Below are positions 5,058 through 50,600 of a DNA stretch of 64,000 nucleotides, one piece after another. The notes under the pieces were generated by a model. It worked only from the letters and a program-made list of their open reading frames with translations. It had not been told where the DNA came from and searched no databases. Origin of the DNA: Candidatus Micrarchaeia archaeon (GTDB taxonomy: Archaea; Micrarchaeota; Micrarchaeia; CABMEP01); NCBI GenBank assembly GCA_038881595.1, contig JAVZPM010000001.1:211562-275561 (forward strand), given 5' to 3'. Position 1 is the first letter of the stretch, and the number at the start of each line of letters is the position of its first letter. Position numbers and translations under genes: made by a program.

Positions 5058-5149
5058 ACTTTATTTATATTCTTTATGATTAAGGTAGATGTCTAAAACC
5101 CTAAGCACGTATATTTTATATATTTTTTTCATTATATATCTTAGAGTGT

Positions 5150-5285: not shown

Positions 5286-5317
5286 CTTAAGGAAATTATA
5301 TTTATTTTATTTGTGAT

Positions 5318-6460: not shown

Positions 6461-6503
6461 TTCTTATTTGTTTTGCATATTGAAAAATGATATAGAACTG
6501 TTG

Positions 6504-26306: not shown

Positions 26307-27176
26307 ATGAAAACTGATATTAAAGATATAAAAGAAGAGGCATTAAAAAGTCAAATAAGACTTGAAACAGAACTTCTTTATAATCCACTAGTTACTGATT
26401 ATCTAAAAACTAATTTTGGTGAAAACTCGATCAAAGTAATTTCCGCTGCTCTGGAAGAAATGACAGATGACGCAATAGCAGCAAGATGCAAGCTTAAAGT
26501 CGCAGAAGTAAGAGCAATACTAAATAAGCTTTACAACTACAAAATGGCAGAGTATAAAAGAATAAAGGACAGAGATACTGGCTGGTTTTCATATATATGG
26601 AAGATAGACGTATCTAATATTCTCAATATAATAAAGGAGCAAACAATAAATAGAATAGAGGAGCTAGATAAAACAGTAGAAAAAATGAATACAGAATTTG
26701 TATACTACTGTCCACAATGCTCAAAAACAAATCTAATAAGTTTTGATCTTGCAGCTGATTTGATGTTTAGATGTCCAAATTGTGAAAATAAACTATTGGA
26801 AAAAGAAAGAGATTCAAAAGATAAGTATGAAAAAGAGCTTATTGAATTAAAATCTAAACACATTTCTTTACTTGAGGATATAAGAAAGTTCGAAGAACTT
26901 AAACGTCAAGAAGAAATTAGAATAAAGGAGCTCCAGGAGAAGATGGCGGAGATGACAAAGATAGAAGAATTATCTAAATCTAAATCAAAGATTAAAAGAG
27001 TAGTAAGTAATAAGATAATTAAGAAGTCAAATAGGAAGTTAAATAATAATTTAAACAAAAAGTCATCTATTAAAGTTAAGCATATGAAATCTAAGGAAGT
27101 ATCAAGAGGCAAAGAAGCAATTATTAAAAAGAAATCATCAAAACCTGCAAAATCAAAAGGTAAGAAAAAGAGATAA
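26307..27176 (+). CDS. tfe: Transcription factor E (TFIIE-alpha homologue) with Lys-rich C-terminal extension, 289 aa
   Basis: An N-terminal winged helix (..EEMTDDAIAARCKLKVAEVRAILNKLYNYKMAEYKRIKDRDTGWFSYIWKID) and the zinc ribbon YYCPQCSKT...FRCPNCENKL are present. A coiled-coil and basic tail follow. Confidence 0.75.
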   Translation: MKTDIKDIKEEALKSQIRLETELLYNPLVTDYLKTNFGENSIKVISAALEEMTDDAIAARCKLKVAEVRAILNKLYNYKMAEYKRIKDRDTGWFSYIWKIDVSNILNIIKEQTINRIEELDKTVEKMNTEFVYYCPQCSKTNLISFDLAADLMFRCPNCENKLLEKERDSKDKYEKELIELKSKHISLLEDIRKFEELKRQEEIRIKELQEKMAEMTKIEELSKSKSKIKRVVSNKIIKKSNRKLNNNLNKKSSIKVKHMKSKEVSRGKEAIIKKKSSKPAKSKGKKKR

Positions 27177-35965: not shown

Positions 35966-36745
35966 TTATTCTTTTAACATCGAATGAATCCTTTCCAATT
36001 CTTCTATCGTTAATGTGAACACTCTTCTTTTTTGTATACCAAGTTTTTCAGCCACCAAAATTAGTTTTGGATATTCATCCATTATCTCTTTTGCCTTTGC
36101 AGCTGCACCTAATGTTTTTTTCCTATGAGAAAAGAGTCGCTCTATGAATTTATCAAATTCAGGGTTATTTGTTTTTTCTCTTTTGAATAGCATAACAATT
36201 GCAGAGTCAACTTTAGGTACTGGTTTAAAGCTTCCTTTAGGAACTTTCTTTAGATATATTGGCTTGAAGTAATAGTTAGTCATTACGCTTAATCTTGACC
36301 AATCCTTTTCGCCTGGCTTTGCAATCATTCTGTCTACAAATTCCTTCTGGAGGCAGAGAATAGCCTTTTCAAAATTAAATTCCTTAAGCTTGAAAAGAAG
36401 TGGAGAAGATATAGAATATGGAACATTACTTATTATTAGATCTATCCTCTTTTGCTTTGATTCTTTTAGAATTTCATTTTCATCTAAATCTAAGAAGTCA
36501 GCTTCTATGACTGTAACATTCTTTTTTTTCTTGAATAAAAATTTAAGAGAATCTGCAAAGCTGAAATCTTTTTCAACAATAATAAGGTGCTTTGCGGTCT
36601 CTGCAACCAATCTGCTAAGGTTTCCAGTACCCCCCCCGATTTCAAGTACTACTTTTCCTTTTGGTTGCAGCATATCTACTTCGTATTTCAGCGTCTCTTC
36701 ATTTTCCAGCATATGCTGGCCAAAATGTTTTCTTTTATTGTACAT
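35966..36745 (-). CDS. ksgA: 16S rRNA (adenine1518/1519-N6)-dimethyltransferase KsgA/RsmA (Dim1), 259 aa
   Basis: GQHML, VLEIGGGTGNLS (SAM motif I) and ISNVPYSISSPLLFKL are diagnostic. Confidence 0.9.
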   Translation of the reverse strand: MYNKRKHFGQHMLENEETLKYEVDMLQPKGKVVLEIGGGTGNLSRLVAETAKHLIIVEKDFSFADSLKFLFKKKKNVTVIEADFLDLDENEILKESKQKRIDLIISNVPYSISSPLLFKLKEFNFEKAILCLQKEFVDRMIAKPGEKDWSRLSVMTNYYFKPIYLKKVPKGSFKPVPKVDSAIVMLFKREKTNNPEFDKFIERLFSHRKKTLGAAAKAKEIMDEYPKLILVAEKLGIQKRRVFTLTIEELERIHSMLKE

Positions 36746-37426: not shown

Positions 37427-37999
37427 TTAGCGTCTTCTAAAATCACTTGTTGGTGGCATGGGTGGCTTAATAAATAAATAGTATCTTTCTTTGCCACTCA
37501 TCTCATTTATTATTCTTTCAGTAATCATTTCTACTGGATTAAGTAGATGTGGTACTCTTTTTGTAAGATCATCAAAACTTTCAAAAGGTTTAATTTCTCT
37601 TTCTTTGAGTATGTCTTCCAAATGTTTCTTTCCAATACCTGGAAGGAGTTCAAGCTGATGGAGTCTTATTGTTACTGGTCCGCATTTATTTATGAAATTT
37701 ATAAAATCACTTTCTCTGCTTTTAACTATTGTTCTTATTGCACTTTTCAGTTCATTTTTAGCAGCACCTGTAAGTTCAGAGTATTCAACTCTTCCTTTTA
37801 TTCTTTCTACTTCCTTTCTTTGATTCAAATCTTTTCCTACATATAGTTTACTATGAAGTTGAATTGGAACATTTCTTTTCACTATAACTTCCAGAAGTGT
37901 AAAGAATCTTTCACCAACTAGGTAAGCAACTGGTTCTCGTTTAATATCCGTTGGTTTACCTAGTGGTAAATAGTCTATTACAATTCCATAGTCTTCCAT
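37427..37999 (-). CDS. DUF655/COG1491 RNA-binding protein (OB + HhH), 190 aa
   Basis: MEDYGIVIDYLPLGKP...LLPGIGKKHLEDILKEREIKPFESFDDL has the helix-hairpin-helix. It is conserved next to rpoF and ksgA in archaea. Confidence 0.65.
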   Translation of the reverse strand: MEDYGIVIDYLPLGKPTDIKREPVAYLVGERFFTLLEVIVKRNVPIQLHSKLYVGKDLNQRKEVERIKGRVEYSELTGAAKNELKSAIRTIVKSRESDFINFINKCGPVTIRLHQLELLPGIGKKHLEDILKEREIKPFESFDDLTKRVPHLLNPVEMITERIINEMSGKERYYLFIKPPMPPTSDFRRR

Positions 38000-38012: not shown

Positions 38013-38363
38013 TTATTGTTTCTGGTATTTTGAAACTATTTCTATTATCTTATTAATTTCGTCTTCTGTTAAAGAATAAGTTTCCTTTGAGAATATCTGT
38101 TCTATTTCTTCTTTCTTCTTTGGCATTAAATCTACAATCTTAACTGCTTTTGCTCTGTTTAGTTTTGCAACTTCACTCATTAATTCACTTATCATTTCCT
38201 CTGCAGTTTCTTTGCTTATTTTGGTCATTTTTTTTGCATATTCTAAAGTCTTTGCCTGTTCGAATCCCATTTCTATTTCACTAGGCATTTCTAGTATTTC
38301 TTTTACTTCAGCAAGCGTTACTTCTCTAATATCAAGGATTTTTTTACCTATCATTCTAATCAC
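38013..38363 (-). CDS. rpoF: RNA polymerase subunit F (Rpb4 homologue), 116 aa
   Basis: The size and helical pattern (LAEVKEILEM...AKTLEYAKKMTKISKETAEEMISEL) fit, as does the conserved position between DUF655 and rpl21e. Confidence 0.65.
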   Translation of the reverse strand: MIRMIGKKILDIREVTLAEVKEILEMPSEIEMGFEQAKTLEYAKKMTKISKETAEEMISELMSEVAKLNRAKAVKIVDLMPKKKEEIEQIFSKETYSLTEDEINKIIEIVSKYQKQ

Positions 38364-38373
38364 TTTTTATAGA

Positions 38374-38658
38374 TCAACATTCTCTTAGGTGGACAGCTGA
38401 AACTATAAATTTCTTTTTTATTCCCCCATCCTCTACTTCTACAACGTAAGCATTTCCCTGTTTTCCTTTAACTATACCAACACGACCAGCATATCTTGGA
38501 TGAGGAAAGTCTTCGAACTTGACATTTGGAACTAGTTGTACCTTTTTTCCTATCTCGATAGTTTTCAATTGATCAACTACAGTAACTTTTCTTTTAGTTG
38601 ATTTTCTTCCAAGCACTCTGCTTTTTCTGCTCATTCTTCCCTTAGATGCTTTGACCAT
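38374..38658 (-). CDS. rpl21e: Ribosomal protein L21e, about 94 aa (start at MVKASKG)
   Basis: MVKASKGRMSRKSRVLGRKSTKRKV...GKKVQLVPNVKFEDFPHPRYAGRVGIVKGKQGNAYVVEV matches L21e (..G.R.RTR....R; G..V.I.......PH.R..G..G.V). Confidence 0.8.
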   Translation of the reverse strand: MVKASKGRMSRKSRVLGRKSTKRKVTVVDQLKTIEIGKKVQLVPNVKFEDFPHPRYAGRVGIVKGKQGNAYVVEVEDGGIKKKFIVSAVHLREC

Positions 38659-38823
38659 ATTATCACTTCGATTCAAATTAAAATTTGTTACAATTAACTC
38701 TAGCTAAAATAAAACTGCATTAATAGATATAATATATGTAGGATAAGTTTAAAAATATACATATATCTAAATGGGATCTCAAACAATTTTTTTATATTTA
38801 AATAGGTTTAAATACCTTCCGAG

Positions 38824-38850
38824 GTATATAAATTTAAGTATTTAAAAAGG
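38824..38850 (+). promoter_or_regulatory. TATA-like promoter elements upstream of the TBP-repeat gene
   Basis: gtatataaatt and tatttaaaaagg lie 35-60 nt upstream of the ATG at 38885 in an otherwise gene-free 200-nt spacer. Confidence 0.35.
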
Positions 38851-38884
38851 CCGAGTTGTAATCGGGCTTTTAAAGGGTGTTTTA

Positions 38885-39163
38885 ATGACGAAAGATGTTA
38901 AGTTTAAGATTGAGAATATTGTAGCATCAGCAAATCTAGGAATCGAACTGGATCTTTATTCTCTTGGAAGAAAGGTTCCAAATATTGAATATGAGCCTGA
39001 ACAATTTCCTGGAGCAATTCTTAAACTTAGGGAACCAAAATCATCATTGCTTCTCTTCAAGAATGGAAAGATAATATGTACTGGTTGCAAGACAGAAAAA
39101 GAAGTAAAATTAGCAATCAGAAATGCAATGGCAATTCTTCAAAAAGCACAGAAGAAGAGATAA
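38885..39163 (+). CDS. Single-repeat TATA-box-binding protein (one TBP domain only), 92 aa
   Basis: IENIVASANLGIELDLYSLGRKVPNIEYEPEQFPGAILKLREPKSSLLLFKNGKIICTGCKTEKEVKLAIRNAMAIL aligns residue-for-residue with one TBP repeat (NIVAS.DLG..LDL..IA......EYNPE.FPG.I.R...PK...LIF.SGK.V.TGAKS.E). No second repeat lies upstream (200 nt of promoter) or downstream. Confidence 0.6.
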   Translation: MTKDVKFKIENIVASANLGIELDLYSLGRKVPNIEYEPEQFPGAILKLREPKSSLLLFKNGKIICTGCKTEKEVKLAIRNAMAILQKAQKKR

Positions 39164-39218
39164 TTAGAGACGTTAGTAAACCAATCATAAAAATAAATTA
39201 AAGTCCGTAACGTCTTAC

Positions 39219-40097
39219 CTATTTAATATAGAAGATATCATTTTCGAATTTTTTTATCATTATTTTTATTTTATTCTTTTTCTTATTATTGCTGTAATCA
39301 AATATAGATCTTCTATCTTTTTTAGGTATGCGTAGCATCTCGTTTAGTTCAGCATAATGCTCTTTGAAACTTTTAGATATTTCTTCAAGCTTTTGTTTTC
39401 TCTTTTCAATTTCCTTAAGTCCATTTATTCTTGCTTCTTCATATTCTCTACTTATCCACCAACCACTGGTTCCATACATATCTATTAACAGCTTATCGTT
39501 TAAGAGAACAAGTTCAATCAAATCAACATTATACTTATCATTTTTCCATTCTTCTAAGACTTTTTCCCTTACAATCAATAATATTCTCTCTTTTTCCTTT
39601 GTATCTATAAAAGTATTATATTCAGCGATTTTCATTAGTAAATTACTAATTACATAAAATTTCTTTTTATCTTGGACTTTCTTATATTCTTCTTCAAGAT
39701 TTAAATCACTCATTTCTATTTCAGTTAATATTTCTACTGCATTTTTAGATACGTCTTTTCCCCTTGTATACCAAATCTTCTTAATTAAGTCTTTTTGTTC
39801 ATCCTTGAATGAATTATCTATAACCTCTTCTACCTTTTTATCTTCAGGATAGTATAGATTATAGTAGTTATAATATGCTTTTGCATCTATTGGCTTAAAT
39901 ATAAGTCCAAGTGTCAAAACCCCTTTTGCTATATTTTCAATTAAAGGTTTTTTGATTTTTTCTTTCCAGTTTTCTTTTTGTATGTTTTTTTCTTTTTTCT
40001 TACTTTCCATTTCCTCCCCTATTGATACTTTCGAATTTGAAGTATATAAGTTTTTCTTTAACGCTTTAGCCATCCTATTTTTTAATATCGATTTCAC
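39219..40097 (-). CDS. Hypothetical charged protein, 292 aa (start overlaps stop of upstream gene: ATGA)
   Basis: Lys/Glu-rich, no recognised motif. It is co-directional and translationally coupled with 40097-43288. Confidence 0.4.
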   Translation of the reverse strand: MKSILKNRMAKALKKNLYTSNSKVSIGEEMESKKKEKNIQKENWKEKIKKPLIENIAKGVLTLGLIFKPIDAKAYYNYYNLYYPEDKKVEEVIDNSFKDEQKDLIKKIWYTRGKDVSKNAVEILTEIEMSDLNLEEEYKKVQDKKKFYVISNLLMKIAEYNTFIDTKEKERILLIVREKVLEEWKNDKYNVDLIELVLLNDKLLIDMYGTSGWWISREYEEARINGLKEIEKRKQKLEEISKSFKEHYAELNEMLRIPKKDRRSIFDYSNNKKKNKIKIMIKKFENDIFYIK

Positions 40098-43000
40098 TAA
40101 GATTTATCATTTCCTTGAATTTTCGTTTCTACGATTCTTTTTTCTTCAGGTTTAGACCACCATTTTTCAACCCATTCTTTATCTTCTTTATTTTTTTGCT
40201 GTTCAATATTAGAAATATCTATTCCTTTCTCTTTTCCAAAGTAATATTGTACCCCTACTCCTACTTCATTTAGCTTATTAAATACTTCGTTTTCATCAAG
40301 CGTTTTTAATTTTGTAGAAGGATCTACTGTTCGTTTTGTATTATCTATTATCTCTCTCATAGGATTTTCTTTGTTTTCCTTAATATGCGCATTTATAGAT
40401 TCTTCAAGTTTCCTCTCTAAACTATATAGAGTTGTATTCATGTTATTCAATGCTTTTAAAAAATCAGAATATCGTTCTTTATCTGCAGGTGATTGTGGGC
40501 CTTGACTCGTATTTTCTACTTCATCACGTGCTTTAGTTATTTTTTCTCGCATTTCTTTTATAGTTTGTACTGGTTGATTATTTATAATTTCTTCAGTTGT
40601 ATCTGCATTTACTAATTTTTCATACCAATTTGGGAATTTTTGTATAAACTTATCTTCTTGTTCCCATTCATAAGGTTCTCGTGTAAGGTCCATTATAATT
40701 CTATCAGTTTTACTTATTCTATAAGGAACAGGAGGGATTTTTTCAATTAATCTTTTTATTTCACGTGATAATTCATCAACATTTTGCTTACCATCAGAAA
40801 TCGAATTATTAACTTGCTGAGCGGTTTTTAAAGCATCAAGAGCACTGCTTGCCTTAAACACTTCTTCTCTCTCTTTGATAGCGCTAGGTCCGATGTATGC
40901 AACGTTATCTATCTTTTTCTCTTTTGCGTATTTACTCATTTCATTTCCAAGTTTTAATGTCTCAATTTCATTATTTATCTTTTCCATCATCACTTCGTAT
41001 TTTTTAATTTCATTTTCTCGCTTCCAGAGTTCATCCTTTGCTTTTTCAAGTTTTGTTTTCATTTCTTCATATCCAGGAGTACCTTTTGATAATTTATTAA
41101 ATTCTCTTTGAATTTCATTTACATTTATCTTTGCTTGATTTAAATTTTCATCTAATATCTTTTTACCGTTTGTGAAAACATTGAAAAGATTATCTTTTGT
41201 AACGTCACTCCACTTCATTTCTTTTCCTTCTATTGATTTTACAATTTCTAATAAATCTTTAGCTTCCTTTTCATTTAATGTACTTCTTATCTGTTTGGCT
41301 ACAGCTTCTGTAAGTAATTCCGAATTCTTTGCATCTCTAAAATTGAGCGTCATTAATGCATTCAATTTCTCATTTCTGTCTATTATTTTATTACCTTTTT
41401 CATCTTTTATATCAATATAATCTAAATATTTTACAACATGTCCGATCATAAAGTCATGAACTAAATAATTAAATGTCAAATATGCATCTGGATCTTTTTG
41501 AACTCTTTCTTTAATTCTTCTTAATGTTTCAGAGTCATTTTTTTCTAAAGCTTTAGTTAGTTCTGTTGGTGAGATTCCAAATGTTTTTGCAAGGTCGCTA
41601 AATTCAGCTATTTTAGCTTTTGATTCATCAATGCCATAGTTTTTATAATATGCGGGCATATCAATTTTTCCTATAAAATTATTTTTGTCAAATCCAATAA
41701 GATTTCCGTTATTTCCTATTCTATTTATTATCTTCTCTGCGTATTTTTCTTCTATGTATTTATCTAATTTATTCAGTATAATAGACAATTTCTCTTCTTT
41801 GATATTAGCGATTTCAGTTAATAAGTTTATTTTTTCTTTGATTTCCATCTTTGTGTATGGAGACAAAAATGGTGATTTCAGTTTCTTCTCTTCATACTCA
41901 ATCAATTCTTTACTTATTTCTTTTGCTTTGTCCATATCTTTGCTATTTAAAATTCCTTTTAGAGAATAAATGTCTGAAATTATCGAATCTGGTGTTAATC
42001 CTAACTTTTCAGCTATTTTCCTTTTTCCAGTTTCAGTCAATCCATATTGATCAATATCTTCACCTATTTTTAATTTCACTCCGTACACTTCTTCTCCTTT
42101 TTTCTTGATATCTTCTAGTTCTTCTTTTGTATAAATTTCTCCTGGCCTTATAATTTGAGGAATCTGTGCATAAGAAAGGGACCAGGGTCTTACGCCAAGA
42201 TGTCCAAGGCTAGCAAAAAAGTTACTTAAAGTTATATTGAGTAATTGTTTAAATAAGGAAGGGGGTGTTTCGTGGAACATTCTTTCACCACCGAAAGGTC
42301 CCTTTGTAGTTTTGATCATCTCTTTTGATTTTTCCTTTTCTTTAGCTTCTGCACCCCTCCTTTGCATCTGCTTTGAAAGTTCAATCATCTTTAGTTTGTT
42401 TAGTTCTTTTGTGCCAGGGATTTTTAAAGTTCTTGAAATAGCAAGCCAAGGCGCAGTTGCTACTTTAACAACAGTTTCAATCGTCTTTTTCCCTTCTGCT
42501 TTTTTCTCAATTTTTTTCAATTCTTTTTCAGGAATTTCAGCTCCTTTAGCCAATCCGATTTTAGCACCTGTTTTAACACTTCCATATACTGCTCCAGCTG
42601 CTATACCTGCAATAGTGGTTCTTTGTCTAGTAGTAACTCTTCTATCACCTATACCTGGCGCTTTAAATGCAACTCTTGAAAAGTCAAACAATCCAAATGG
42701 ATTCTTTCCAGATGCAAACATTGCTGCGATAAGAAGAGCAAATATTATGAAAAGAGGAGCACAAGCATTCAAACTTATTAACGGAAATATTCCAGGAACA
42801 TATCGTTCTGTTTTCACGCTTCCCGTAAATGGTTCTTTTGGTTTTGGTGTAAAAGAAGCAGTTATTGAATATGAGATCTTTCTAGGATCGGTTGAATTTT
42901 CTAATAATGGTGGCTGAGTGTATATTGTAAAAGAAACAGTTCCATTTTCATCAGTCTTTTGTACGAAAGGTGCTGACTCATCTGAAAGGACAAACTCACC

Positions 43001-43288
43001 TGCCGCATTTTTTGTTACAAATTTACTTCCAATTACCAGTTCTATAGTTATATTTTTGTTTGCGAGAGGTATTCTATTTTGTGTTTTTCTATCAATCGCA
43101 TTAAGTTGTATATTAACATCGATTGTATTATCAGTTATACCTACAGGTATATTTATTGGATGCCTTGAATGCTGAATTACAATTTCAGTTGGATTTTTAT
43201 CTACAGGACAGATATTAGCTGTGAAAACTAGAGGAATTGTAAAGAGGAAAAGTATAATAACTAATCCATTTACTCTCATTTGTATCAA
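40097..43288 (-). CDS. Large (1063 aa) membrane protein: signal peptide, about 180-aa ectodomain, single TM, about 800-aa cytoplasmic coiled-coil region
   Basis: N-terminus MIQMRVNGLVIILFLFTIPLVFTA is a signal peptide. The TM is FPLISLNACAPLFIIFALLIAAMFASG. The long remainder is Lys/Glu-rich and heptad-like. It is transcribed divergently from the six-paralog array. Confidence 0.55.
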   Translation of the reverse strand: MIQMRVNGLVIILFLFTIPLVFTANICPVDKNPTEIVIQHSRHPINIPVGITDNTIDVNIQLNAIDRKTQNRIPLANKNITIELVIGSKFVTKNAAGEFVLSDESAPFVQKTDENGTVSFTIYTQPPLLENSTDPRKISYSITASFTPKPKEPFTGSVKTERYVPGIFPLISLNACAPLFIIFALLIAAMFASGKNPFGLFDFSRVAFKAPGIGDRRVTTRQRTTIAGIAAGAVYGSVKTGAKIGLAKGAEIPEKELKKIEKKAEGKKTIETVVKVATAPWLAISRTLKIPGTKELNKLKMIELSKQMQRRGAEAKEKEKSKEMIKTTKGPFGGERMFHETPPSLFKQLLNITLSNFFASLGHLGVRPWSLSYAQIPQIIRPGEIYTKEELEDIKKKGEEVYGVKLKIGEDIDQYGLTETGKRKIAEKLGLTPDSIISDIYSLKGILNSKDMDKAKEISKELIEYEEKKLKSPFLSPYTKMEIKEKINLLTEIANIKEEKLSIILNKLDKYIEEKYAEKIINRIGNNGNLIGFDKNNFIGKIDMPAYYKNYGIDESKAKIAEFSDLAKTFGISPTELTKALEKNDSETLRRIKERVQKDPDAYLTFNYLVHDFMIGHVVKYLDYIDIKDEKGNKIIDRNEKLNALMTLNFRDAKNSELLTEAVAKQIRSTLNEKEAKDLLEIVKSIEGKEMKWSDVTKDNLFNVFTNGKKILDENLNQAKINVNEIQREFNKLSKGTPGYEEMKTKLEKAKDELWKRENEIKKYEVMMEKINNEIETLKLGNEMSKYAKEKKIDNVAYIGPSAIKEREEVFKASSALDALKTAQQVNNSISDGKQNVDELSREIKRLIEKIPPVPYRISKTDRIIMDLTREPYEWEQEDKFIQKFPNWYEKLVNADTTEEIINNQPVQTIKEMREKITKARDEVENTSQGPQSPADKERYSDFLKALNNMNTTLYSLERKLEESINAHIKENKENPMREIIDNTKRTVDPSTKLKTLDENEVFNKLNEVGVGVQYYFGKEKGIDISNIEQQKNKEDKEWVEKWWSKPEEKRIVETKIQGNDKS

Positions 43289-43336: not shown

Positions 43337-44962
43337 ATGAAGAAATCTAATAAATTTATAAAGTTTACTTATTCATTATTCATTCTGTTTAGCCTAATTA
43401 TTTTTGTTTATGCTCAAATACAAACACAAAGCCAACAGACATGGCAGCAGTATGTTCCTAATTGGTTTCCTTTGTTTGCAGTTGCAATCGGAATAGGATT
43501 TGGAATAACTGGACTTGCGTTCATGTTAGCAAGAACTTTTCAACTTCCACAGATGGAAACATGGGCTAGAGCAGAATTGTTTGAGGTAACTGGAAGTGCA
43601 TTCTTAGTTTTAATAATACTAATAACATTAGGAGTGATTGACAATCTATTCATTGCGGCAGTAGGAATGAAGCCAACAGATCTTTCACTTGACTTTACAA
43701 ATAGAATTTCAGAAAGATTAATGGATAGATATATTGATTCTGTTAAGCTAGGTGCAGCAATAGGTATGCTTTCAGGTCCACCAGTTCAATATTTAGGTGC
43801 AACATCTTCAACGTCAGATAAAAGCGGTCAGCTAAATCAAGGAAGCGGTACTCAAGCTACAGGAGGCAACGACGGCAAACCAGAGCAGTCTTCAGAGACA
43901 CCAAATAGAATCTGGATGGTAGCCATTAAATCTTTTAAAATGAATTACCTAACGTTTTATGCTGCAGATGTTTTTAACGGTCATTTTAACTTAGTTCAAT
44001 CTATAGCCTTAACTTCTTTAGCAGCATCTATATTTTCTCATATATTATTGAATTTTATAAATAGTGTTGCAATTCCATTTTTAATTCCATTTGGATTGTT
44101 TTTGAGTATATTTACATTGACAAGGAAAATGGGGAGAACTATAATTGCATTTGGTGTTGGGCTCTATCTCTTTGTTCCTCTTTCAATAATAATTGCTCAA
44201 ACAATGTATGATTCTGTATTTAAGCCAAATTCTTCAATTCCTCCTATTAGTAGACCTTCAGGAAATTCAAATATAGATAGATTTACAAATGAAGTATTTG
44301 CTTATGAAGCTTTAGATCTACTTTCTCAGCTAGCAATTGCTCAATATGCGATTTTACGTAATTCAGATACTTCTTTAATACCAAGCTGTGCAGCTGGAGC
44401 CACTTCTCTTTCTTCAATATGTGGAATAGCTGCTCCAGCTTGCGTTCCAATATTTACTATAGTATGTTATGTGCTTGGTGGTATGTCTGATGTAGGTAGT
44501 GGAATGGATAACTTAAACACCATCCAAGATGTTTTATCCGTTTTGAGAGTTGCTACTTTAAGCACAATTCTTGATGTTCCTGTTTCAGATCAATTAAATT
44601 CAGCAGTTGCAACCATTGTAAGTTTAGGGGTGGCAGGTGTTGCATCTACATTTATATTTCATTTAATTCCATCTAATGTGATGTCTATAAATTATATTAT
44701 GCCATTACTGCAACAATTAATGAACTTTGGACAGTATGAAGTATCTGTTTTGACAGCTTCTCTATATGCAAACATGAATCAATACTTAGCAATCAAGTTA
44801 ACAAATATTACACTTGCATATACTCCATATGTAATGCAAGATGCAGTTCCTGCATTACTCATCCCGTTCATAATCATCTTTACAGTTATAACTGGTATAA
44901 GGTCAATCTCTCCAGCTATTGGAGGGGAAGTTCAAATACTGGGAGTCTCAGAACTTATATGA
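43337..44962 (+). CDS. Paralog 1 of a six-member tandem family of polytopic membrane proteins, 541 aa
   Basis: A signal peptide (..LIIFVYA|QIQ) is followed by W..E + TM (ETWARAELFEVTGSAFLVLIILITLGV), a variable exo region, TM bundle with TLTRKMGRTIIAFGVGLYLFVPL and C-terminal ..ISPAIGGEVQILGVSELI. Confidence 0.6.
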   Translation: MKKSNKFIKFTYSLFILFSLIIFVYAQIQTQSQQTWQQYVPNWFPLFAVAIGIGFGITGLAFMLARTFQLPQMETWARAELFEVTGSAFLVLIILITLGVIDNLFIAAVGMKPTDLSLDFTNRISERLMDRYIDSVKLGAAIGMLSGPPVQYLGATSSTSDKSGQLNQGSGTQATGGNDGKPEQSSETPNRIWMVAIKSFKMNYLTFYAADVFNGHFNLVQSIALTSLAASIFSHILLNFINSVAIPFLIPFGLFLSIFTLTRKMGRTIIAFGVGLYLFVPLSIIIAQTMYDSVFKPNSSIPPISRPSGNSNIDRFTNEVFAYEALDLLSQLAIAQYAILRNSDTSLIPSCAAGATSLSSICGIAAPACVPIFTIVCYVLGGMSDVGSGMDNLNTIQDVLSVLRVATLSTILDVPVSDQLNSAVATIVSLGVAGVASTFIFHLIPSNVMSINYIMPLLQQLMNFGQYEVSVLTASLYANMNQYLAIKLTNITLAYTPYVMQDAVPALLIPFIIIFTVITGIRSISPAIGGEVQILGVSELI

Positions 44963-44984
44963 AACAATTAAGGAGAGTCAGATC

Positions 44985-45857
44985 ATGGGATTTAGTGATA
45001 TACCGACATGTTTAAGCACTTGCACATTATCATCAGAGTATTCAAACTGGCTTCCTTTAGCGAGTATGATAATATTCATAGTTCTACTTGGAATATCTAT
45101 AGGCTTTATGATATCTAGGTTTCTAAATAGACGCGATTGGGAAGCAATGATAAGATTAGAATTATACCATCTATCAGTTGCAGTTATTTGGATCGGATTA
45201 ATCGCAATAGTTGCTAACATTACATGCTCGTTATCTTGCTCAATAACTAAAGACGAGAGTCCGTTCACTTCTTCAATTAATTATCTTAACACAATTAATT
45301 CAAAATTGAGTAGTATTATAAATTCCTTGTATGAGAAAGCAAAGAATATAAGAATAGAAACAGCATATTATGATGCATTTGCCAATTTCATGTATTCGCC
45401 AAAGGCAGGTTGTGATAATGTTGCATCAGTGTATGAGAATTTTTCATTCATGTTATCTCCATTCGTTGCCAGTCTTTTGATTCAGCAGTATGCTTTAATT
45501 TTTATAAGCCAGATTGCATTCACATATCTACTTCCTATCGGAATAATTCTTCGCTTGATTCCAGGGTTTAAAGATGCTTCTTCATATGTTATTGCTATTG
45601 CCTTTTCATTTTATATTATCCTGCCTTTAACTTATATTTTCGCGCAAAAGGCAACCGAAGGAATTTCACTATCTACTATTGATACAGATGCAAATGATTG
45701 CGTCTCTGCTAATGAAATTCAGACCATATTAACTGATGTTGGATTGATTTTGCCTCAGGCAGTATTCTTCCCTGCTTTAAGTAGCATTATTACAATTGGT
45801 GCAGCAAGAGCGCTTGCAGAGATATTTAAGTATGATTTCATTGAACTAAGGGGATAA
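44985..45857 (+). CDS. Paralog 2 of the membrane-protein family, about 290 aa (start taken at ATG 44985 preceded by AGGAGA; ORF-track start 44919 overlaps paralog 1)
   Basis: The W..E+TM element is RRDWEAMIRLELYHLSVAVIWIGL. The conserved TM motif is LRLIPGFKDASSYVIAIAFSFYIILPLTY. The C-terminus is RALAEIFKYDFIELRG. Confidence 0.55.
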   Translation: MGFSDIPTCLSTCTLSSEYSNWLPLASMIIFIVLLGISIGFMISRFLNRRDWEAMIRLELYHLSVAVIWIGLIAIVANITCSLSCSITKDESPFTSSINYLNTINSKLSSIINSLYEKAKNIRIETAYYDAFANFMYSPKAGCDNVASVYENFSFMLSPFVASLLIQQYALIFISQIAFTYLLPIGIILRLIPGFKDASSYVIAIAFSFYIILPLTYIFAQKATEGISLSTIDTDANDCVSANEIQTILTDVGLILPQAVFFPALSSIITIGAARALAEIFKYDFIELRG

Positions 45858-45858
45858 A

Positions 45859-47043
45859 TTGGATCTAGACAAGATAATTAATAAAGGCACATGCGATAGA
45901 AAGATAGCTATGGTAGTGTATGTTCTATTTTTATTTGTCTCATTTTCATTTGCAGCTCAAGATGTTTTTGGTTTTCATACAGATGTTGACTGGATTCTAA
46001 TCGCATATTTAGTTATACTTATTGTTGCGCTACTATTAGGAATCGCATTTATGATATCAAAAGTATTTGCAATGCATGAGTTAGAAGCATGGACAAGAGA
46101 AGAAGCAATGAATCTTATTATGTCAATTGCAATTCTTGTTTTATTTACTGCTTTTATTGGTGTAGCTGAACAAATAGCAAATTCTTTATCTAAAGATATT
46201 CTTTCTTCAAGCGTTTCTGCAAGTGCTTCAGGTAATATAAGTTATTGGCAATACATACCAAATGAAGGCAGATGGAAAACAATAGAAACTTCCAATCCAT
46301 CTTGTGAATACCCATGTTACATGTATATGGCAAGAGGCTTCTTAGGTTCTTTGTATGAAAAATATGGAGAATCTTTAAAGGGTATCGCGCAATACTATTT
46401 TGTTTCAGTTTTTTATTCCACCCAATCTGTGGGGTCTGGTGTTGATTTTACTTGGGGTAAATTTAAATTTGAATTTGGAATGGGATTTCCATTAAATGCA
46501 GGTTTAACTATCTATAACAATATACTAGCAACAGTAGTAAGCGAGTATTTGAAAATAATCACAGCTATAAAAATGCAGGAAATTGCTTTAGTTTATCTTT
46601 CATCTCTTGCAGGCATGTTCTTCATACTTGGGATAATATCACGTTCAGTTTGGTTTTTAAGAAAATTCGGCGGTCTGTTTGTAGCTGCAGGCATAGGTTT
46701 ATACTTAATATTTCCAATGGTTTATGTTTTAAGTTGGTACACGATTGACAGATCTGTAGTGATGTTCGAAGTGGATCTTCCAGAACCAGCAGCTTCGGAT
46801 GATCTGCTTTCATTCTTTACCGGTGGAATTGGAGGTTTAGGAAATGTTGATTTGTTATTTACAAAATATAATGAGAATGGATCTGTAATTTCAATCGGAA
46901 TGTTAGATGCATTAGGAAGGTCATACATCCCAATAATAGTAGTGCCAATCCTTGCGATTTTTACCACTCTTGGATTTATAAGACATTTCTCACCAATGAT
47001 TGGTGGAGATCCTGAAATAGCAGGTCTTACAAGAATTATTTAA
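45859..47043 (+). CDS. Paralog 3 of the membrane-protein family, 394 aa (TTG start after AAGGGG)
   Basis: A signal peptide (..FSFA|AQD) is followed by HELEAWTREEAMNLIMSIAILVLF, then SRSVWFLRKFGGLFVAAGIGLYLIFPMVY, and C-terminal FSPMIGGDPEIAGLTRII. Confidence 0.55.
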   Translation: MDLDKIINKGTCDRKIAMVVYVLFLFVSFSFAAQDVFGFHTDVDWILIAYLVILIVALLLGIAFMISKVFAMHELEAWTREEAMNLIMSIAILVLFTAFIGVAEQIANSLSKDILSSSVSASASGNISYWQYIPNEGRWKTIETSNPSCEYPCYMYMARGFLGSLYEKYGESLKGIAQYYFVSVFYSTQSVGSGVDFTWGKFKFEFGMGFPLNAGLTIYNNILATVVSEYLKIITAIKMQEIALVYLSSLAGMFFILGIISRSVWFLRKFGGLFVAAGIGLYLIFPMVYVLSWYTIDRSVVMFEVDLPEPAASDDLLSFFTGGIGGLGNVDLLFTKYNENGSVISIGMLDALGRSYIPIIVVPILAIFTTLGFIRHFSPMIGGDPEIAGLTRII

Positions 47044-47056
47044 GCATATGAATTAA

Positions 47057-48202
47057 GTGGATATTATGATGTTTAGTTTAAGTGAGTTTATGAAAAATAA
47101 TAAAACAAAGAAAAATGCAAATTCGATATTAGATCTATTTTCAAAAAGTTTAATTATGTTTTTCATCTTAATTTCAATATCCTTTGCTGCAACAGAATGT
47201 GGTTACTTTGGAACATATCTTTACAATAATGTTTGTGTTCCTGACCTATTAGTTAATTTAAGTACAATACTAATTTTAATCGGAATCGTAATAGGCTCAA
47301 TATTTTATGGACTGGGCATTGCATTAGAGCATACAAGAATTAAAGAATGGTCTAAAGAGTTTCTTTATCAAATGCTTGGTACAGCAGTAATTCTTTCTGT
47401 TTATCTAGGTCTCGTAGCTTCTTTAAACAGTTTTGCACCTGCAATTTATAATTCAAATCTAGCATATCCGGCTGAAAGCACTGTTCGTTCTCTTTCAGAT
47501 ACTAAATGGATAAACGTGCAATCACATGCTGAAAAATATGTAGATTGCCTTTTAAATTACACAAAAAACGCAACACTGGAAATAGTGGGGATTTCCTCCT
47601 CTTTATCTTCATTAGCATCTACTTCTATTCAATTAATTTCTGGTTCCTTCAGTAACTTTTATCCAATATTTCCAACTGGAGGGGGTCTGACTTCTATAAT
47701 GTCGGTTCTAATAGGGGCGCTTGCAACAACCATTATTCAGCTTAAACTCCAACTTGAAATACTAAAATTGAATTCTGCATTGTTTAGTATTGTGCTTCCA
47801 CTTGGATTGATATTAAGATCATTTCCATATACAAGAGGGGCTGGAGCAGCAATGATAGCAATAACATTTGGATTTACGATCTTTCTACCTATATTTTATT
47901 TGATCATAGAGGACATAGGTTATCATTTTTATCAAAAAGATGTATGTTCAATACATCCACCATCGATAGGATTTTTCCAGCTGGTAGGCATGGGAATAAA
48001 AATAGCGCAAAATGGAGCAATTGAAACGCTTCAAGATTACTTTGGAGTCGGAGGAGATTTTGAAAGCCTGACAACAGTTTTATTAATACAAGCTACTATT
48101 CTTCCATTTGTAGCTTATTTAGTAGTTCTTAATATAATTAAGCGGCTTGCAGAGGTGCTAGGTGGGGAGATAGATCTCAGCACATTGGTGAGATTGATAT
48201 GA
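47057..48202 (+). CDS. Paralog 4 of the membrane-protein family, 381 aa (GTG at 47057 or ATG at 47066)
   Basis: A signal peptide (..ISISFA|ATE) is followed by HTRIKEWSKEFLYQMLGTAVIL, then LRSFPYTRGAGAAMIAITFGFTIFLPIFY, and C-terminal LAEVLGGEIDLSTLVRLI. Confidence 0.55.
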   Translation: MDIMMFSLSEFMKNNKTKKNANSILDLFSKSLIMFFILISISFAATECGYFGTYLYNNVCVPDLLVNLSTILILIGIVIGSIFYGLGIALEHTRIKEWSKEFLYQMLGTAVILSVYLGLVASLNSFAPAIYNSNLAYPAESTVRSLSDTKWINVQSHAEKYVDCLLNYTKNATLEIVGISSSLSSLASTSIQLISGSFSNFYPIFPTGGGLTSIMSVLIGALATTIIQLKLQLEILKLNSALFSIVLPLGLILRSFPYTRGAGAAMIAITFGFTIFLPIFYLIIEDIGYHFYQKDVCSIHPPSIGFFQLVGMGIKIAQNGAIETLQDYFGVGGDFESLTTVLLIQATILPFVAYLVVLNIIKRLAEVLGGEIDLSTLVRLI

Positions 48203-49335
48203 AAAAGAGATTCGTTCATGTATTGCATTTAGCTTTGCTGCTTCTAATTATTCTATTTAATCCTGTGCATGCTCAAACAAATACTAATCAAGACAATGTG
48301 CCAAATGGTTGTGAAGTTGCGTTGCTTTTGGATTTTGGAAATCAAAGCAACAGTGCTATAGGCGTAGAACAGAATTGGAAATCTTTGTCCTTTATTGGAT
48401 TATTAGTTTCTTTATTCCTGTTAATTTTTGCATATTTAATAGGTAAATCTTTAGATTCCCCACAACTTATAGCTAGAGCTAAGACAGATATGATTCAGGT
48501 GGTTGTGACTGCAATAATGCTTGGAGTTCTTTATTCAATCTTATTCTTTATTTGCAGTATTGATGCGTCTCAATTTGGATTTAACTTTACTTCATTTTTT
48601 GATGGAGCAAGAATGTATCTTGAATATTCGAGGGCCTCAGCACTCAATGCATATCTTAAATGTACAAATGCAATGATGATCATAACTGGATTATCTACAT
48701 TCAATATAAACAATCCAAACTTTATAGACTTGGGTGCATTTCTACATATAGGGGTTTACTTTAAACCTTTTGCAGGTTATGGAATTACAATAGGTGCTCT
48801 TAACTGGTTCTCCAGTCTGGTTCAACTTTCATATTCATTAATTACTGGATATATTGTGGTTCTAAATGCGATTCAATTATATTTCCTTAATCTACTTCTT
48901 CCAGCAGGAGTAGTATTGAGGTGTTTTTCACCAACAAGAGATTTAGGCGGTGTCCTGATTGCAATAAGTGTAGGTTTATTCTTTTTCTATCCTTTACTGT
49001 TTTCATTTTCATACATGATTATAGGTCAACCAGATCCAAATGTAGGATTGCCAGACATGGATTGGGAGAGTGAGATAAATAGTGCTGTAGTTAAATCTGT
49101 AGCACTATCGTCAGCTCCTTTCGGTAGTCTTATAATTATCTATAATTCATTGTTCGGCAAAGGCGGAGAAGCCATAGATAGATTAAATGAGGCATATATC
49201 GCGACAGGCAGTGTGATTTTATATGTTTTTATATTACCTGCAATTAATTGGATTATCTTAGTAGCAATTGTCAGAGAATTAAGCAAGGCATTAGGCCAGG
49301 AAGTAGATATATCTGGTTTGGCAAGAATGATCTGA
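48199..49335 (+). CDS. Paralog 5 of the membrane-protein family, 378 aa (ATGA overlap with paralog 4)
   Basis: A signal peptide (..FNPVHA|QTN) is followed by QLIARAKTDMIQVVVTAIMLGV, then LRCFSPTRDLGGVLIAISVGLFFFYPLLF, and C-terminal LSKALGQEVDISGLARMI. Confidence 0.6.
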   Translation: MKKRFVHVLHLALLLLIILFNPVHAQTNTNQDNVPNGCEVALLLDFGNQSNSAIGVEQNWKSLSFIGLLVSLFLLIFAYLIGKSLDSPQLIARAKTDMIQVVVTAIMLGVLYSILFFICSIDASQFGFNFTSFFDGARMYLEYSRASALNAYLKCTNAMMIITGLSTFNINNPNFIDLGAFLHIGVYFKPFAGYGITIGALNWFSSLVQLSYSLITGYIVVLNAIQLYFLNLLLPAGVVLRCFSPTRDLGGVLIAISVGLFFFYPLLFSFSYMIIGQPDPNVGLPDMDWESEINSAVVKSVALSSAPFGSLIIIYNSLFGKGGEAIDRLNEAYIATGSVILYVFILPAINWIILVAIVRELSKALGQEVDISGLARMI

Positions 49336-49349
49336 AAGACGGTGAAATT

Positions 49350-50600
49350 ATGTTTGTAAATCCGCAAAAAAGTAAAATAAAATCAAATATTCATTCATTA
49401 TTTCTACAGATAATACTATTTTTATTTATTTTAAATCAAGTGAGTGCACTTTCATGCAGCGTTACAGATCAAAATTGCCCAAGCGGACAGATATGTGATA
49501 ATGGAGAATGCAGGGAATGCCTTACAAGTGCAGAATGCTGGAGCAAAACTCTAATTAGATCCACTCCAATAGGAGGGATTTCACCTTGGGTTAGTATATC
49601 TGTTATAGTTTTACTTATATCGCTCCTAGGTGTTGCAATATTTTATATGATAGCTTACGCATTCCAATCTGATCAGTACAAAAGAATTGCATTCGCTGAA
49701 CTGATGCAAGTATTGGCTTCATTTCTATTAATTGCTTTCTTATTCGGATTTGAAATATTTGAAACAGATATGTTAACGAGATTGGAAAAAACTTCTGGAG
49801 CGATTACATCTGCATTAGTTCTTCAATCCCAAGGAGCATCTCCTAATATCGCACTTTCTGGAAATGTTTATATTAATCCATTTGATGTTTCATATGCATT
49901 TCTTAGAAATATGATAACTTGCGTTCAAAACAAATTAAAGACAACATATGAGAATTCAAAAGCAATACAAACAATAATTAATTTAAATATAGACGTACAA
50001 GTGATTACACCTGGAAAGGTGAAATTTTCAGTTCCAAACCCTCTTGCTTTTACATCTCTATCAGAAACTGCAGCAAAGTACGAATTTCAAGCAAGTGAAC
50101 TTACTTGGCTTATGATATTCCTTTACGCCCAGATAGCAGTTCTGAAATTTATAGAAACATCTATGTTTACAGTCTTTTTGCCAATAGGGTTAATACTTAG
50201 AGCATTTCCACCTACTAGAGGAGCAGGGGCTGTGCTAGTTGCGATAGCAATAGGATTTTATCTAATCTATCCTTTGACATTCACTTTATTATATACTGGA
50301 ACACCTAAGCAGATAGAAGGATGCAATCTTCAAGTTGCATTCGATTACTCTCAATTGGAAAAGACATGTCCATTAAACATTGGTGCAACCACTCAGATAA
50401 TTTCTTCTGCATCTGATCTTGCTGCAACATTAGACGCAGCTGTACCGCAATTACAGGCAGGGACATCTTCTATTAGATTCACCGCATTCTTGTATATGCT
50501 TATTTCATTAGGTGTCACATTTATATTTGTCCGTTCATTGTCAAGCATATTAGGTGCAGATATTTCAGAGATAGGAAGAACAATGTTAAGATTATTATAA
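49350..50600 (+). CDS. Paralog 6 of the membrane-protein family, about 416 aa (start at ATG 49350; ORF-track start 49248 overlaps paralog 5)
   Basis: A signal peptide (..LNQVSA|LSC) and a CxxxxCxxxxCxxxxC exo segment are followed by QYKRIAFAELMQVLASFLLIAF, then LRAFPPTRGAGAVLVAIAIGFYLIYPLTF, and C-terminal LSSILGADISEIGRTMLRLL. Confidence 0.55.
   Translation: MFVNPQKSKIKSNIHSLFLQIILFLFILNQVSALSCSVTDQNCPSGQICDNGECRECLTSAECWSKTLIRSTPIGGISPWVSISVIVLLISLLGVAIFYMIAYAFQSDQYKRIAFAELMQVLASFLLIAFLFGFEIFETDMLTRLEKTSGAITSALVLQSQGASPNIALSGNVYINPFDVSYAFLRNMITCVQNKLKTTYENSKAIQTIINLNIDVQVITPGKVKFSVPNPLAFTSLSETAAKYEFQASELTWLMIFLYAQIAVLKFIETSMFTVFLPIGLILRAFPPTRGAGAVLVAIAIGFYLIYPLTFTLLYTGTPKQIEGCNLQVAFDYSQLEKTCPLNIGATTQIISSASDLAATLDAAVPQLQAGTSSIRFTAFLYMLISLGVTFIFVRSLSSILGADISEIGRTMLRLL

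Follow-up and report, generated by a model that had tools for sequence, protein, structure and literature searches.

Can a TATA-binding protein (TBP) be made from a single repeat? The two-repeat saddle of TBP is a textbook example of a protein born by internal duplication of a homodimeric ancestor, but no natural homodimeric TBP that serves as the cell's initiation factor has been characterised. The question is raised by a short gene in a Micrarchaeota genome (Candidatus Micrarchaeia archaeon, contig JAVZPM010000001.1). An earlier note, made from the sequence of a 64-kb stretch of this contig (here, the window), had described the gene as encoding one TBP repeat and suggested that the product could be a homodimer, an ancestral-type TBP or a paralogous regulator. 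The observation is confirmed by the present analysis. The interpretation is borne out only in part: homodimer function is the best-supported mechanism, whereas an ancestral origin is not supported and a role as a paralogous regulator is unlikely.

The gene and its predicted fold

The gene runs from ATG to TAA and encodes a protein of 92 aa (Table 1), here called sTBP. It matches the Pfam TBP repeat family PF00352 with E = 4.2e-30 and 103.8 bits (cut-off 22.9) over residues 6-87, corresponding to positions 1-84 of the 85-position repeat profile, and all the conserved motif blocks listed in the earlier note are present. The protein aligns about equally well to the N and C repeats of solved archaeal TBPs, with roughly 68 bits each for 2z8u. 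However, it falls far below the NCBIfam full-length TBP equivalog cut-offs (91.5 against 270 bits), and most members of the family are for this reason labelled “hypothetical protein” by NCBI.

Table 1. Features of the sTBP locus, in window coordinates.
Position	Strand	Feature	Support
38885..39163	+	One-repeat TBP gene (sTBP), 92 aa; S1-H1-S2-S3-S4-S5-H2 order of a single TBP repeat; key residues F41 and F58 (DNA-kinking Phe), N11 and T66 (central minor-groove contacts), E37-P38-E39-Q40 (stirrup)	PF00352; AF2 model; 33 invariant positions across 79 family members
38677..38884		Divergent 208-nt intergenic spacer between the L21e operon (-) and sTBP (+); no coding potential for a TBP repeat	Aligned across the window and three related genomes (L001, L002, L003)
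38807..38815	+	Conserved TTTAAATAC box, candidate TATA element for sTBP; core TTTAAA is palindromic	Invariant in the four genomes although synonymous sites are saturated against L003; promoter function inferred
38747..38756		Conserved GTTTAAAAAT box, candidate TATA element that may serve the divergent L21e operon	Invariant in the four genomes; function and strand inferred
38875..38879	+	SD-like GGGTG, 6-10 nt upstream of the ATG	GGTG conserved in all four genomes; function inferred
38374..38676	-	Ribosomal protein L21e, first gene of the conserved divergent neighbour block	PF01157; synteny
38013..38363	-	RNA polymerase subunit Rpo4/F (Rpb4 family)	PF03874; synteny
37427..37999	-	DUF655 protein	PF04919 (201.7 bits); synteny
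35966..36745	-	KsgA/RrnaAD rRNA dimethyltransferase, outer end of the syntenic block that marks the canonical TBP locus in Micrarchaeota and Iainarchaeia	PF00398; synteny
39219..40097	-	Convergent gene, its 3' end 55 nt after the sTBP stop codon

An AF2 model of the protein has a pLDDT of 91.8 and shows the elements of a TBP repeat in the expected order. A Foldseek search with this model, which addressed a condition that had been set beforehand as able to refute the TBP assignment, returned TBPs for all of the top 44 hits, with TMq of 0.81-0.85 and rmsd of 0.8-1.5 Å. RNase HIII and OGG1, which share the distant helix-grip TBP-like fold, appeared only at E of about 0.3, with TMq of 0.33-0.41. 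The N-terminal domains of RNase HIII and of the AlkA/OGG1 glycosylases are fused to catalytic domains and lack the TBP motifs, while sTBP is a stand-alone ORF. The protein is thus a genuine TBP repeat and not a domain of the RNase HIII/AlkA type.

No second repeat was found in the window. Searches of all six frames with tblastn and phmmer --max gave next-best hits of E = 0.14 and E = 0.79, which is noise. There is no room for a frameshifted repeat, since the gene is closely followed by the convergent gene and the upstream spacer has no TBP-like coding in any frame. The same scan on 91 related loci found second repeats only in truly two-repeat genes and in one tandem pair of one-repeat genes (locus L005). 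At locus L081, a 109-aa ORF upstream of the one-repeat gene might have been a cryptic second repeat, but it encodes a hydrophobic membrane protein with no similarity to TBP.

The note also described the upstream spacer as promoter-bearing. The conserved boxes make this plausible, but promoter function is inferred. TTTAAA is the most enriched upstream hexamer in the window (19 observed against 6.7 expected, z = 4.9). However, TTTAAA-type boxes are common in archaea generally and gene starts and TSSs are unknown, so the enrichment is only consistent with recognition of a symmetric element and is not diagnostic. The note's remark on CTGCK in place of the canonical motif needs correction. C65 is invariant in the family and is also common in ordinary archaeal TBPs, whereas C68 is variable (C 28, S 27, A 22 of 79 sequences). 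The CxxC is therefore not a defining feature, and the idea of a redox or metal site was dropped for the same reason.

A conserved family at the canonical TBP locus

The one-repeat form is widespread in Micrarchaeota. Of the 120 best hits to the protein, 107 are one-repeat, and more than 100 distinct one-repeat TBPs (88-149 aa) exist in the phylum, in a clade spanning several orders. They include proteins on the closed 1.18-Mb genome of Ca. Fermentimicrarchaeum limneticum (CP058998.1) and on contigs of 1.08 Mb and 0.69 Mb. Many members carry Lys-rich rather than acidic tails.

Intragenic repeats can collapse in short-read assemblies, and an artefact or a decaying, truncated gene must be considered. 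This is very unlikely here. The identical protein occurs in four independent NCBI MAGs, and the related clusters come from different assemblers. Orthologs have diverged to dS 0.3-2.6 yet keep the architecture, with dN/dS of 0.02-0.03, indicating strong purifying selection. One relative, the one-repeat protein P0102, does look like an N/C chimera. However, in the real two-repeat gene P0525, a Micrarchaeota relative at the same locus, the repeats share at most 17 identical nt in a row, too few to collapse at k≥21, and P0102 and P0525 come from lineages whose flanks are only about 80% identical.

The gene lies in a conserved slot, divergent from the L21e-Rpo4-DUF655-KsgA block. This arrangement flanks the one-repeat gene in the window and at loci L001-3, L006-8, L081, L088 and L175, and it flanks the two-repeat gene at Micrarchaeota loci L040-44, L048, L083 and L172 and at many Iainarchaeia loci. 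sTBP is therefore the positional ortholog of the canonical TBP.

This position bears on the possibility that sTBP is an accessory paralog, non-essential or regulatory, for example a competitor for TATA or TFB, like halobacterial TbpA, in a genome that also encodes a canonical TBP elsewhere. All previously described single-domain TBP-like proteins coexist with full-length TBPs (PMC3597702, Table 3). The window covers only 64 kb of a contig of at least 359 kb, and absence of a canonical TBP from the rest of this genome is not demonstrated. However, no co-occurrence was seen: none of 240 two-repeat TBPs, taken from the best 120 hits of each of two profile searches, the first dominated by Iainarchaeia and the second made with a Micrarchaeota-only profile, shares a contig-length fingerprint, organism name or locus-tag prefix with any one-repeat contig, and the one-repeat set includes a closed 1.18-Mb genome and a 1.08-Mb contig. 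An exact look-up of the window's protein found no record. For Ca. F. limneticum, only one-repeat “TATA-box binding proteins” were annotated by NCBI among those retrieved. Together with the low dN/dS and the invariance of the predicted DNA- and TFB-contact residues, the locus makes the accessory reading unlikely.

Two kinds of single-domain protein have been described before. Halobacterial TbpA (Brindefalk et al. 2013, PMC3597702) is also a true TBP-type sequence consisting of one repeat, but it is one of several TBP genes, lies on a plasmid of Halobacterium NRC-1, is very similar to full-length TBPs in the same genome and is reported to be non-essential. sTBP sits at the ancestral chromosomal TBP locus and belongs to a large, old, strongly conserved clade, and the nearest two-repeat proteins are at most 62% identical and come from other lineages; no full-length TBP was seen alongside it, although coexistence is not formally excluded. 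The Thermococcales “monopartite TBP-domain” proteins (e.g., P. furiosus NP_578195; PMC3597702, Table 3) are likewise about 90-97 aa with a single TBP-like fold. However, they are highly diverged from TBP, form a separate sequence cluster, coexist with a normal TBP and have unknown function, while sTBP is a high-scoring TBP repeat that clusters with the repeats of DPANN TBPs. A literature search gave no description of Micrarchaeota one-repeat TBPs; only Brindefalk 2013 and a one-line remark in Ravarani 2020 mention single-lobe archaeal TBPs.

A possible symmetric homodimer

Compared with canonical archaeal TBPs such as those of Pyrococcus woesei (1AIS/1PCZ), M. jannaschii (2Z8U) and S. acidocaldarius (1MP9), sTBP is 42-46% identical to each repeat, with a predicted fold that superposes at about 1 Å, but has 92 aa instead of about 180-190, so that a saddle would have to be made from two chains and be perfectly symmetric. 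In TBP, paired Phe residues kink the TATA box and central Asn and Thr residues contact the minor groove (F99/F116 and N69/T124 in yeast TBP and their C-repeat equivalents), while an acidic stirrup binds TFB/TFIIB (equivalent to human E284/E286/L287). The corresponding residues F41, F58, N11, T66, E37, P38 and Q40 are invariant in 79 family members, with E39 present in 78 of 79. The stirrup motif, EYEPEQFPG, is identical to that of the C repeat of P. woesei TBP. The contacts themselves are inferred by analogy.

Strand S1, which forms the inter-repeat interface, is 4-5 times more constrained than in two-repeat TBPs. Its entropy is 0.18 bits, against 0.63-1.02 in N or C repeats at equal overall divergence, and ENIVASA (residues 10-16) is invariant. 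In the monomer model only half of S1 is strand (E12-17), whereas S1 spans 12 residues in each repeat of the fused relative P0525. Near-symmetric TBPs work in this phylum: the median N-C identity is 0.62 (maximum 0.72) in 118 Micrarchaeota two-repeat TBPs, against 0.38-0.57 elsewhere. In the highly symmetric two-repeat proteins P0517, P0525 and P0008 of other Micrarchaeota, which occupy the same locus, each repeat is 60-71% identical to sTBP, but the halves are covalently linked and can diverge, with an N-C identity of 0.62-0.72, not 1.0. P0525, used as a natural proxy for the homodimer, is predicted to form a canonical saddle with pLDDT 94.6 and TMt up to 0.91.

The current thinking is that the gene encodes the organism's general transcription factor TBP in a one-repeat form, a reading to which a probability of about 0.6 is given. 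In this view, two identical subunits associate through their central S1 strands and rebuild the ten-stranded saddle that canonical TBP makes from two covalently linked repeats. The homodimer would bind and bend a TATA element whose core here is the palindrome TTTAAA, using two copies each of F41 and F58 for the kinks and of N11 and T66 for the central minor-groove contacts. Either of the two identical stirrups could recruit TFB, and the direction of transcription would then be set entirely by the TFB-BRE contact, as is already largely the case in archaea. No TFB gene was found among the 40 window ORFs scanned with Pfam. What the analysis establishes is the gene, its fold as modelled, its family membership and conservation, its positional orthology, the distribution of the family and the lability of repeat number; dimerisation, binding and bending of DNA, TFB and RNAP recruitment, and the status of sTBP as the only TBP in the genome are inferences from these.

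An alternative is an obligate heterodimer, or “split TBP”, with a different one-repeat subunit encoded outside the window. Fermentimicrarchaeales genomes keep two conserved paralog types that are about 80% identical, type A at the syntenic slot and type B elsewhere; type B is re-duplicated in F. limneticum. Some relatives carry two or three distinct one-repeat paralogs, and heterodimers are therefore possible in those lineages and cannot be excluded here. However, in the window's lineage each NCBI MAG locus-tag prefix appears once among the 120 best hits, although a paralog of at least 60% identity would have been listed, and the closest genomes, L001-L003, show one copy within ±10 kb. All single-repeat proteins retrieved fall in one clade and none groups with C-repeats, and the paralogs that do exist are nearly identical on the DNA-binding face. 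An obligate heterodimer is thus considered unlikely for sTBP.

Repeat number and the origin of the one-repeat form

The architecture of sTBP is what models of TBP origin postulate (PMC3597702), and the protein could in principle be a direct descendant of the single-domain ancestor. In repeat trees, all DPANN repeats (N, C and single) group together apart from the euryarchaeal N and C clades (bs 0.66-0.70), and in a tree of neighbouring proteins a one-repeat lineage (L081) is the first Micrarchaeota branch. However, Iainarchaeia, other Micrarchaeota, all other archaea and eukaryotes have two repeats, and the DPANN relatives have them at the same locus. The one-repeat proteins are 45-60% identical to ordinary TBP repeats and nest within DPANN diversity rather than branching outside N plus C. 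The living-fossil reading is therefore very unlikely, and the form looks derived.

A recombination footprint of a change from two repeats to one was seen directly in the P0102/P0525 pair: relative to P0525, the P0102 gene is N-repeat-like at its 5' end and C-repeat-like at its 3' end. In the opposite direction, the repeats of the two-repeat P0525 and P0008 nest inside the one-repeat clade. The trees were built on 91 columns and have weak deep support, and the direction and number of changes are unresolved for the window's own lineage. sTBP itself shows no simple N/C hybrid pattern: HMM scores favour N-repeats of Iainarchaeia, diagnostic columns favour C-repeats of Micrarchaeota and the trees are unresolved, so no conclusion is drawn on which repeat it came from. 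The proposed origin is that an already highly symmetric two-repeat Micrarchaeota TBP lost one repeat at the native locus, most simply by recombination between the repeats, and that in related lineages the gene was re-duplicated, giving tandem or dispersed one-repeat paralogs, and possibly re-fused.

Since these proteins fail full-length annotation thresholds, TBP can wrongly appear to be missing from Micrarchaeota genomes. A conserved one-repeat TBP at the canonical locus would give an experimentally tractable, natural “pre-duplication-like” TBP for structure, DNA-bending and transcription assays, and would test whether promoter polarity can rest entirely on the TFB-BRE contact. It would also offer a dated series of intermediates for studying how symmetry is lost and regained: one-repeat genes, tandem one-repeat genes, dispersed paralogs, near-symmetric fusions and ordinary TBPs. 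A bolder possibility, about as likely as not, is that in a multi-order clade of Micrarchaeota TBP works as a non-covalent, perfectly symmetric homodimer, or where paralogs exist perhaps as combinatorial homo- and heterodimers, with no canonical TBP in the cell, and that repeat number has switched more than once, from two to one by recombination and from one to two by re-duplication and fusion. These organisms would then replay, in living lineages, the duplication-fusion step thought to have created TBP, and would allow a direct test of what TBP asymmetry is for.

A single TBP repeat and its family

The ORF that starts the analysis is intact from ATG to TAA and encodes 92 aa. It matches the Pfam TBP repeat (PF00352) at 103.8 bits, against a cut-off of 22.9, over positions 1-84 of the 85-position profile. 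Against PDB sequences, it aligns about equally to the N and C repeats of archaeal TBPs, with roughly 68 bits each for M. jannaschii 2Z8U. An AlphaFold2 model built from 79 family members is confident (pLDDT 91.8) and shows the element order S1-H1-S2-S3-S4-S5-H2. A Foldseek search of the PDB with this model returns 44 TBP chains first, with TMq 0.81-0.85 and rmsd 0.8-1.5 Å over about 80 residues, while the N-domains of RNase HIII and OGG1 appear only at E about 0.3. The possibility of an RNase HIII/AlkA-type fold, which had been named beforehand as a reason to reject the TBP assignment, is therefore excluded.

A six-frame search of all 64 kb finds no second repeat, the next-best hits being at E=0.14 and E=0.79. 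The 208-nt upstream spacer contains no TBP-like coding, and a convergent gene ends 55 nt after the stop codon. The short spacer between the two convergent stop codons contains an 8-nt inverted repeat, AGACGTTA...TAACGTCT, with arms about 33 nt apart, which was seen by eye only and may be a bidirectional terminator or a protein-binding site. The observation made in the earlier note, that this gene encodes one TBP repeat with no second repeat nearby, is confirmed. The note's remark on a CTGCK motif is of minor importance, since C65 is invariant and common in archaeal TBPs, while C68 varies (C, S or A) within the family.

The window has 32% GC, intron-containing tRNAs, a 5S rRNA and archaeal information-processing genes (Table). 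Three tRNA genes of 111-136 nt are detected by Rfam but missed by ARAGORN and presumably contain introns, and a tRNA-splicing endonuclease gene is also present. TFE-alpha (PF02002) is 289 aa long, with the domain at residues 32-126 followed by a long C-terminal extension, but no TFB gene was found among the 40 window ORFs scanned. Further along is a run of six ORFs (312-541 aa) without a Pfam match. Some of these hit the same relatives in L001, L002 and L048 (related loci carry the prefix L, and proteins the prefix P), so they appear to be paralogous. They lie next to a Pfam-less 1063-aa ORF that is only 31-41% identical between otherwise 90-97% identical genomes, which marks a fast-evolving region. 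Two giant ORFs of 2791 aa and 1425 aa may be surface or adhesion proteins, which would be typical of DPANN episymbionts, although this is a guess.

Table. Coordinates of the TBP genes and of other features in the window and in related loci.
Location	Position	Strand	Feature
Window	38885-39163	+	One-repeat TBP gene
Window	39164-39218		55-nt spacer between convergent stop codons
Window	5150-5285	+	tRNA gene, presumed intron
Window	10240-10362	+	tRNA gene, presumed intron
Window	22077-22187	-	tRNA gene, presumed intron
Window	15008-15529	-	tRNA-splicing endonuclease gene
Window	26307-27176	+	TFE-alpha (PF02002)
Window	40097-43288	-	1063-aa ORF without Pfam match
Window	43337-50600	+	Run of six ORFs without Pfam match
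Window	51485-59860	+	Giant ORF, 2791 aa
Window	10417-14694	+	Giant ORF, 1425 aa
L005 (JAPLWT010000057.1)	5133-5462		One-repeat TBP gene of tandem pair
L005 (JAPLWT010000057.1)	6411-6737		One-repeat TBP gene of tandem pair
L087 (CP058998.1)	5001-5312		One-repeat TBP gene, Ca. Fermentimicrarchaeum limneticum
L090 (CP058998.1)	5001-5321		One-repeat TBP gene, Ca. Fermentimicrarchaeum limneticum
L088 (CP058998.1)	5001-5303		One-repeat TBP gene, Ca. Fermentimicrarchaeum limneticum
L175	3749-4048		One-repeat TBP gene (P0102)
L172	5001-5582		Two-repeat TBP gene (P0525)

The identical protein is deposited from four “Candidatus Micrarchaeia archaeon” MAGs, on contigs of up to 359 kb. Of the 120 best database hits, 107 are one-repeat proteins of 88-149 aa (median 104), and nearly all of the named ones come from Micrarchaeota. 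They occur on a 1.08-Mb JGI contig, a 0.69-Mb contig and the closed 1.18-Mb genome of Ca. Fermentimicrarchaeum limneticum. Between the window and its closest relatives, dN/dS is 0.02-0.03 with dS 0.3-2.6. Truncation, pseudogenisation and assembly collapse are therefore not credible explanations. An exhaustive search of 1.84 billion representative proteins shows how unusual the form is: among the best 150 TBP representatives only three are one-repeat-sized, and all three belong to this family at 65-69% identity.

Most NCBI members of the family are labelled “hypothetical protein”, because a single repeat scores far below the NCBIfam full-length TBP cut-offs, and TBP may therefore be wrongly scored as absent in Micrarchaeota gene-content surveys. 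Two members sit in bins labelled Brevinematia and Omnitrophica, which are probably mis-binned contigs. Many one-repeat TBPs carry Lys-rich basic tails of 20-50 aa, either N-terminal (P0049, P0075, P0095) or C-terminal (P0086-P0117), as do the two-repeat TBPs of Iainarchaeia (L009-L011), whereas many other archaeal TBPs have an acidic C-terminal tail. These tails may provide extra non-specific DNA contacts. Three proteins, P0121 (283 aa, from a 989-nt ENA contig), P0122 (269 aa) and P0453 (283 aa), are predicted three-repeat TBPs on short contigs. P0122 contains a long, exactly duplicated stretch, and the three could be real in-frame duplications or assembly artefacts.

Genomic position, coexistence and paralogs

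The gene is transcribed divergently from L21e-Rpo4/F-DUF655-(Yip1)-KsgA. The same neighbour block flanks the one-repeat gene in L001-3, L006-8, L081, L088 and L175, and the ordinary two-repeat TBP in other Micrarchaeota (L040-44, L048, L083, L172) and in most Iainarchaeia loci. The one-repeat gene is thus the descendant, at the native locus, of the canonical TBP, and not an extra paralog inserted elsewhere.

That no canonical TBP coexists with the one-repeat form is the weak point, since the rest of this genome lay outside the 64 kb examined and the evidence is indirect. The best hits of two profile searches comprised 240 two-repeat TBPs, including some on Micrarchaeota contigs of 1.57, 1.37, 0.53, 0.42 and 0.41 Mb. 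None of these shares a contig (as judged by its exact size), organism name or locus-tag prefix with any contig carrying a one-repeat gene (1,178,830; 1,076,730; 692,087; 565,110; 359,334 nt and others). In addition, the canonical slot is occupied by the one-repeat gene. The absence of a coexisting canonical TBP is given a probability of about 0.8.

Fermentimicrarchaeales keep two one-repeat types that are about 80% identical and conserved across at least three genomes. Type A lies at the syntenic slot, while type B lies elsewhere and is duplicated again in F. limneticum, whose closed genome carries three dispersed one-repeat genes. In L005, type B is present as a tandem pair, about 1 kb apart on the same strand and 96.6% identical at the nucleotide level, which represents a very recent duplication and a possible first step toward re-fusion. 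Heterodimers are therefore possible in those lineages, and the paralogs suggest combinatorial homo- and heterodimers. For the window's lineage, only one copy is seen among the best database hits and the related loci.

Origin of the one-repeat form

A tree of the four neighbour proteins (635 columns) gives a monophyletic Micrarchaeota (bootstrap 0.96), in which the one-repeat L081 branches first, followed (0.97) by a one-repeat clade and a two-repeat clade. Repeat trees place all one-repeat proteins in one weakly supported clade inside a DPANN group (0.66-0.70), in which N and C repeats resemble each other more than they resemble their euryarchaeal counterparts. Two local placements are better supported: the N-repeat of P0008 is sister to the one-repeat P0077 (0.99), and the C-repeat of P0525 is sister to the one-repeat P0102 (0.84).

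At the DNA level, the P0102 gene is N-repeat-like for about 210 nt and C-repeat-like for its last 150 nt or so, relative to P0525, with the switch in the shared EYEPEQFPGAILKLK core. The two genes sit in the same syntenic slot in related lineages whose flanks are about 80% identical, and the repeats of P0525 share at most 17 identical nt in a row. This is the footprint expected of recombination between the repeats deleting one unit, a 2-to-1 change. Repeat number has therefore changed more than once in this phylum. The direction for the window's own lineage is left unresolved, however, and its protein shows no clean N/C hybrid pattern. With two repeats at the same locus in all outgroups, the one-repeat state looks derived and not a relic.

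Comparison with known proteins and inferred mechanism

Two kinds of single-domain protein were described by Brindefalk et al. 2013 (PMC3597702). Halobacterial TbpA is a plasmid-borne truncated paralog that sits beside several full-length TBPs. The monopartite TBP-domain proteins of Thermococcales are highly diverged and also sit beside a normal TBP. Single-lobe archaeal TBPs are mentioned in passing by Ravarani et al. Nothing was found on Micrarchaeota, on positional replacement of the canonical TBP or on repeat-number switching in the literature searched, which left out most subscription papers. The protein is a bona fide member of the TBP repeat family, but it lacks the two tandem repeats that define canonical TBP.

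The 79 family members share 33 invariant positions. These include the two Phe that kink TATA DNA in canonical TBPs (F41, F58), the central Asn and Thr (N11, T66) and the residues ENIVASA (10-16) of strand S1. They also include E37, P38 and Q40 of the acidic stirrup, the surface that binds TFB/TFIIB in the C-repeat of canonical TBPs, where E39 is present in 78 of 79. The roles of these residues are inferred by correspondence with yeast and human residues. In canonical TBPs, the two repeats join through S1 and S1' at the pseudo-dyad. S1 is 4-5 times more constrained in the one-repeat family (0.18 bits) than in the N or C repeats of two-repeat TBPs at the same overall divergence (0.63-1.02 bits), which is what a self-complementary interface predicts. 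In the isolated-chain model, only residues 12-17 of S1 form strand, whereas in the fused relative P0525, S1 is a 12-residue strand in both repeats.

Near-symmetry is normal in this phylum. In 118 Micrarchaeota two-repeat TBPs, the median N-C identity is 0.62 (maximum 0.72), against 0.38-0.57 in Iainarchaeia and Euryarchaeota. P0525, built from two repeats that nest among one-repeat proteins, models as a canonical saddle with pLDDT 94.6 and TMt up to 0.91 against solved TBPs. The most over-represented upstream hexamer in the window is the palindrome TTTAAA (19 observed against 6.7 expected), and two TTTAAA-core boxes in the TBP/L21e spacer are invariant across four genomes. This is consistent with a symmetric reader but is not diagnostic.

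The interpretation in the earlier note, which offered a homodimer, an ancestral-type TBP or a paralogous regulator, is partly supported: the homodimer is favoured, the ancestral-type reading is not supported, and a regulatory paralog is unlikely for a gene in the canonical slot. While the gene and its one-repeat architecture are real, dimerisation, DNA binding and TFB binding are inferred, and the value of the finding depends on homodimerisation and on the absence of a coexisting canonical TBP. Taken together, the best explanation is a C2-symmetric homodimeric TBP, in which polarity would be supplied by the TFB-BRE contact.
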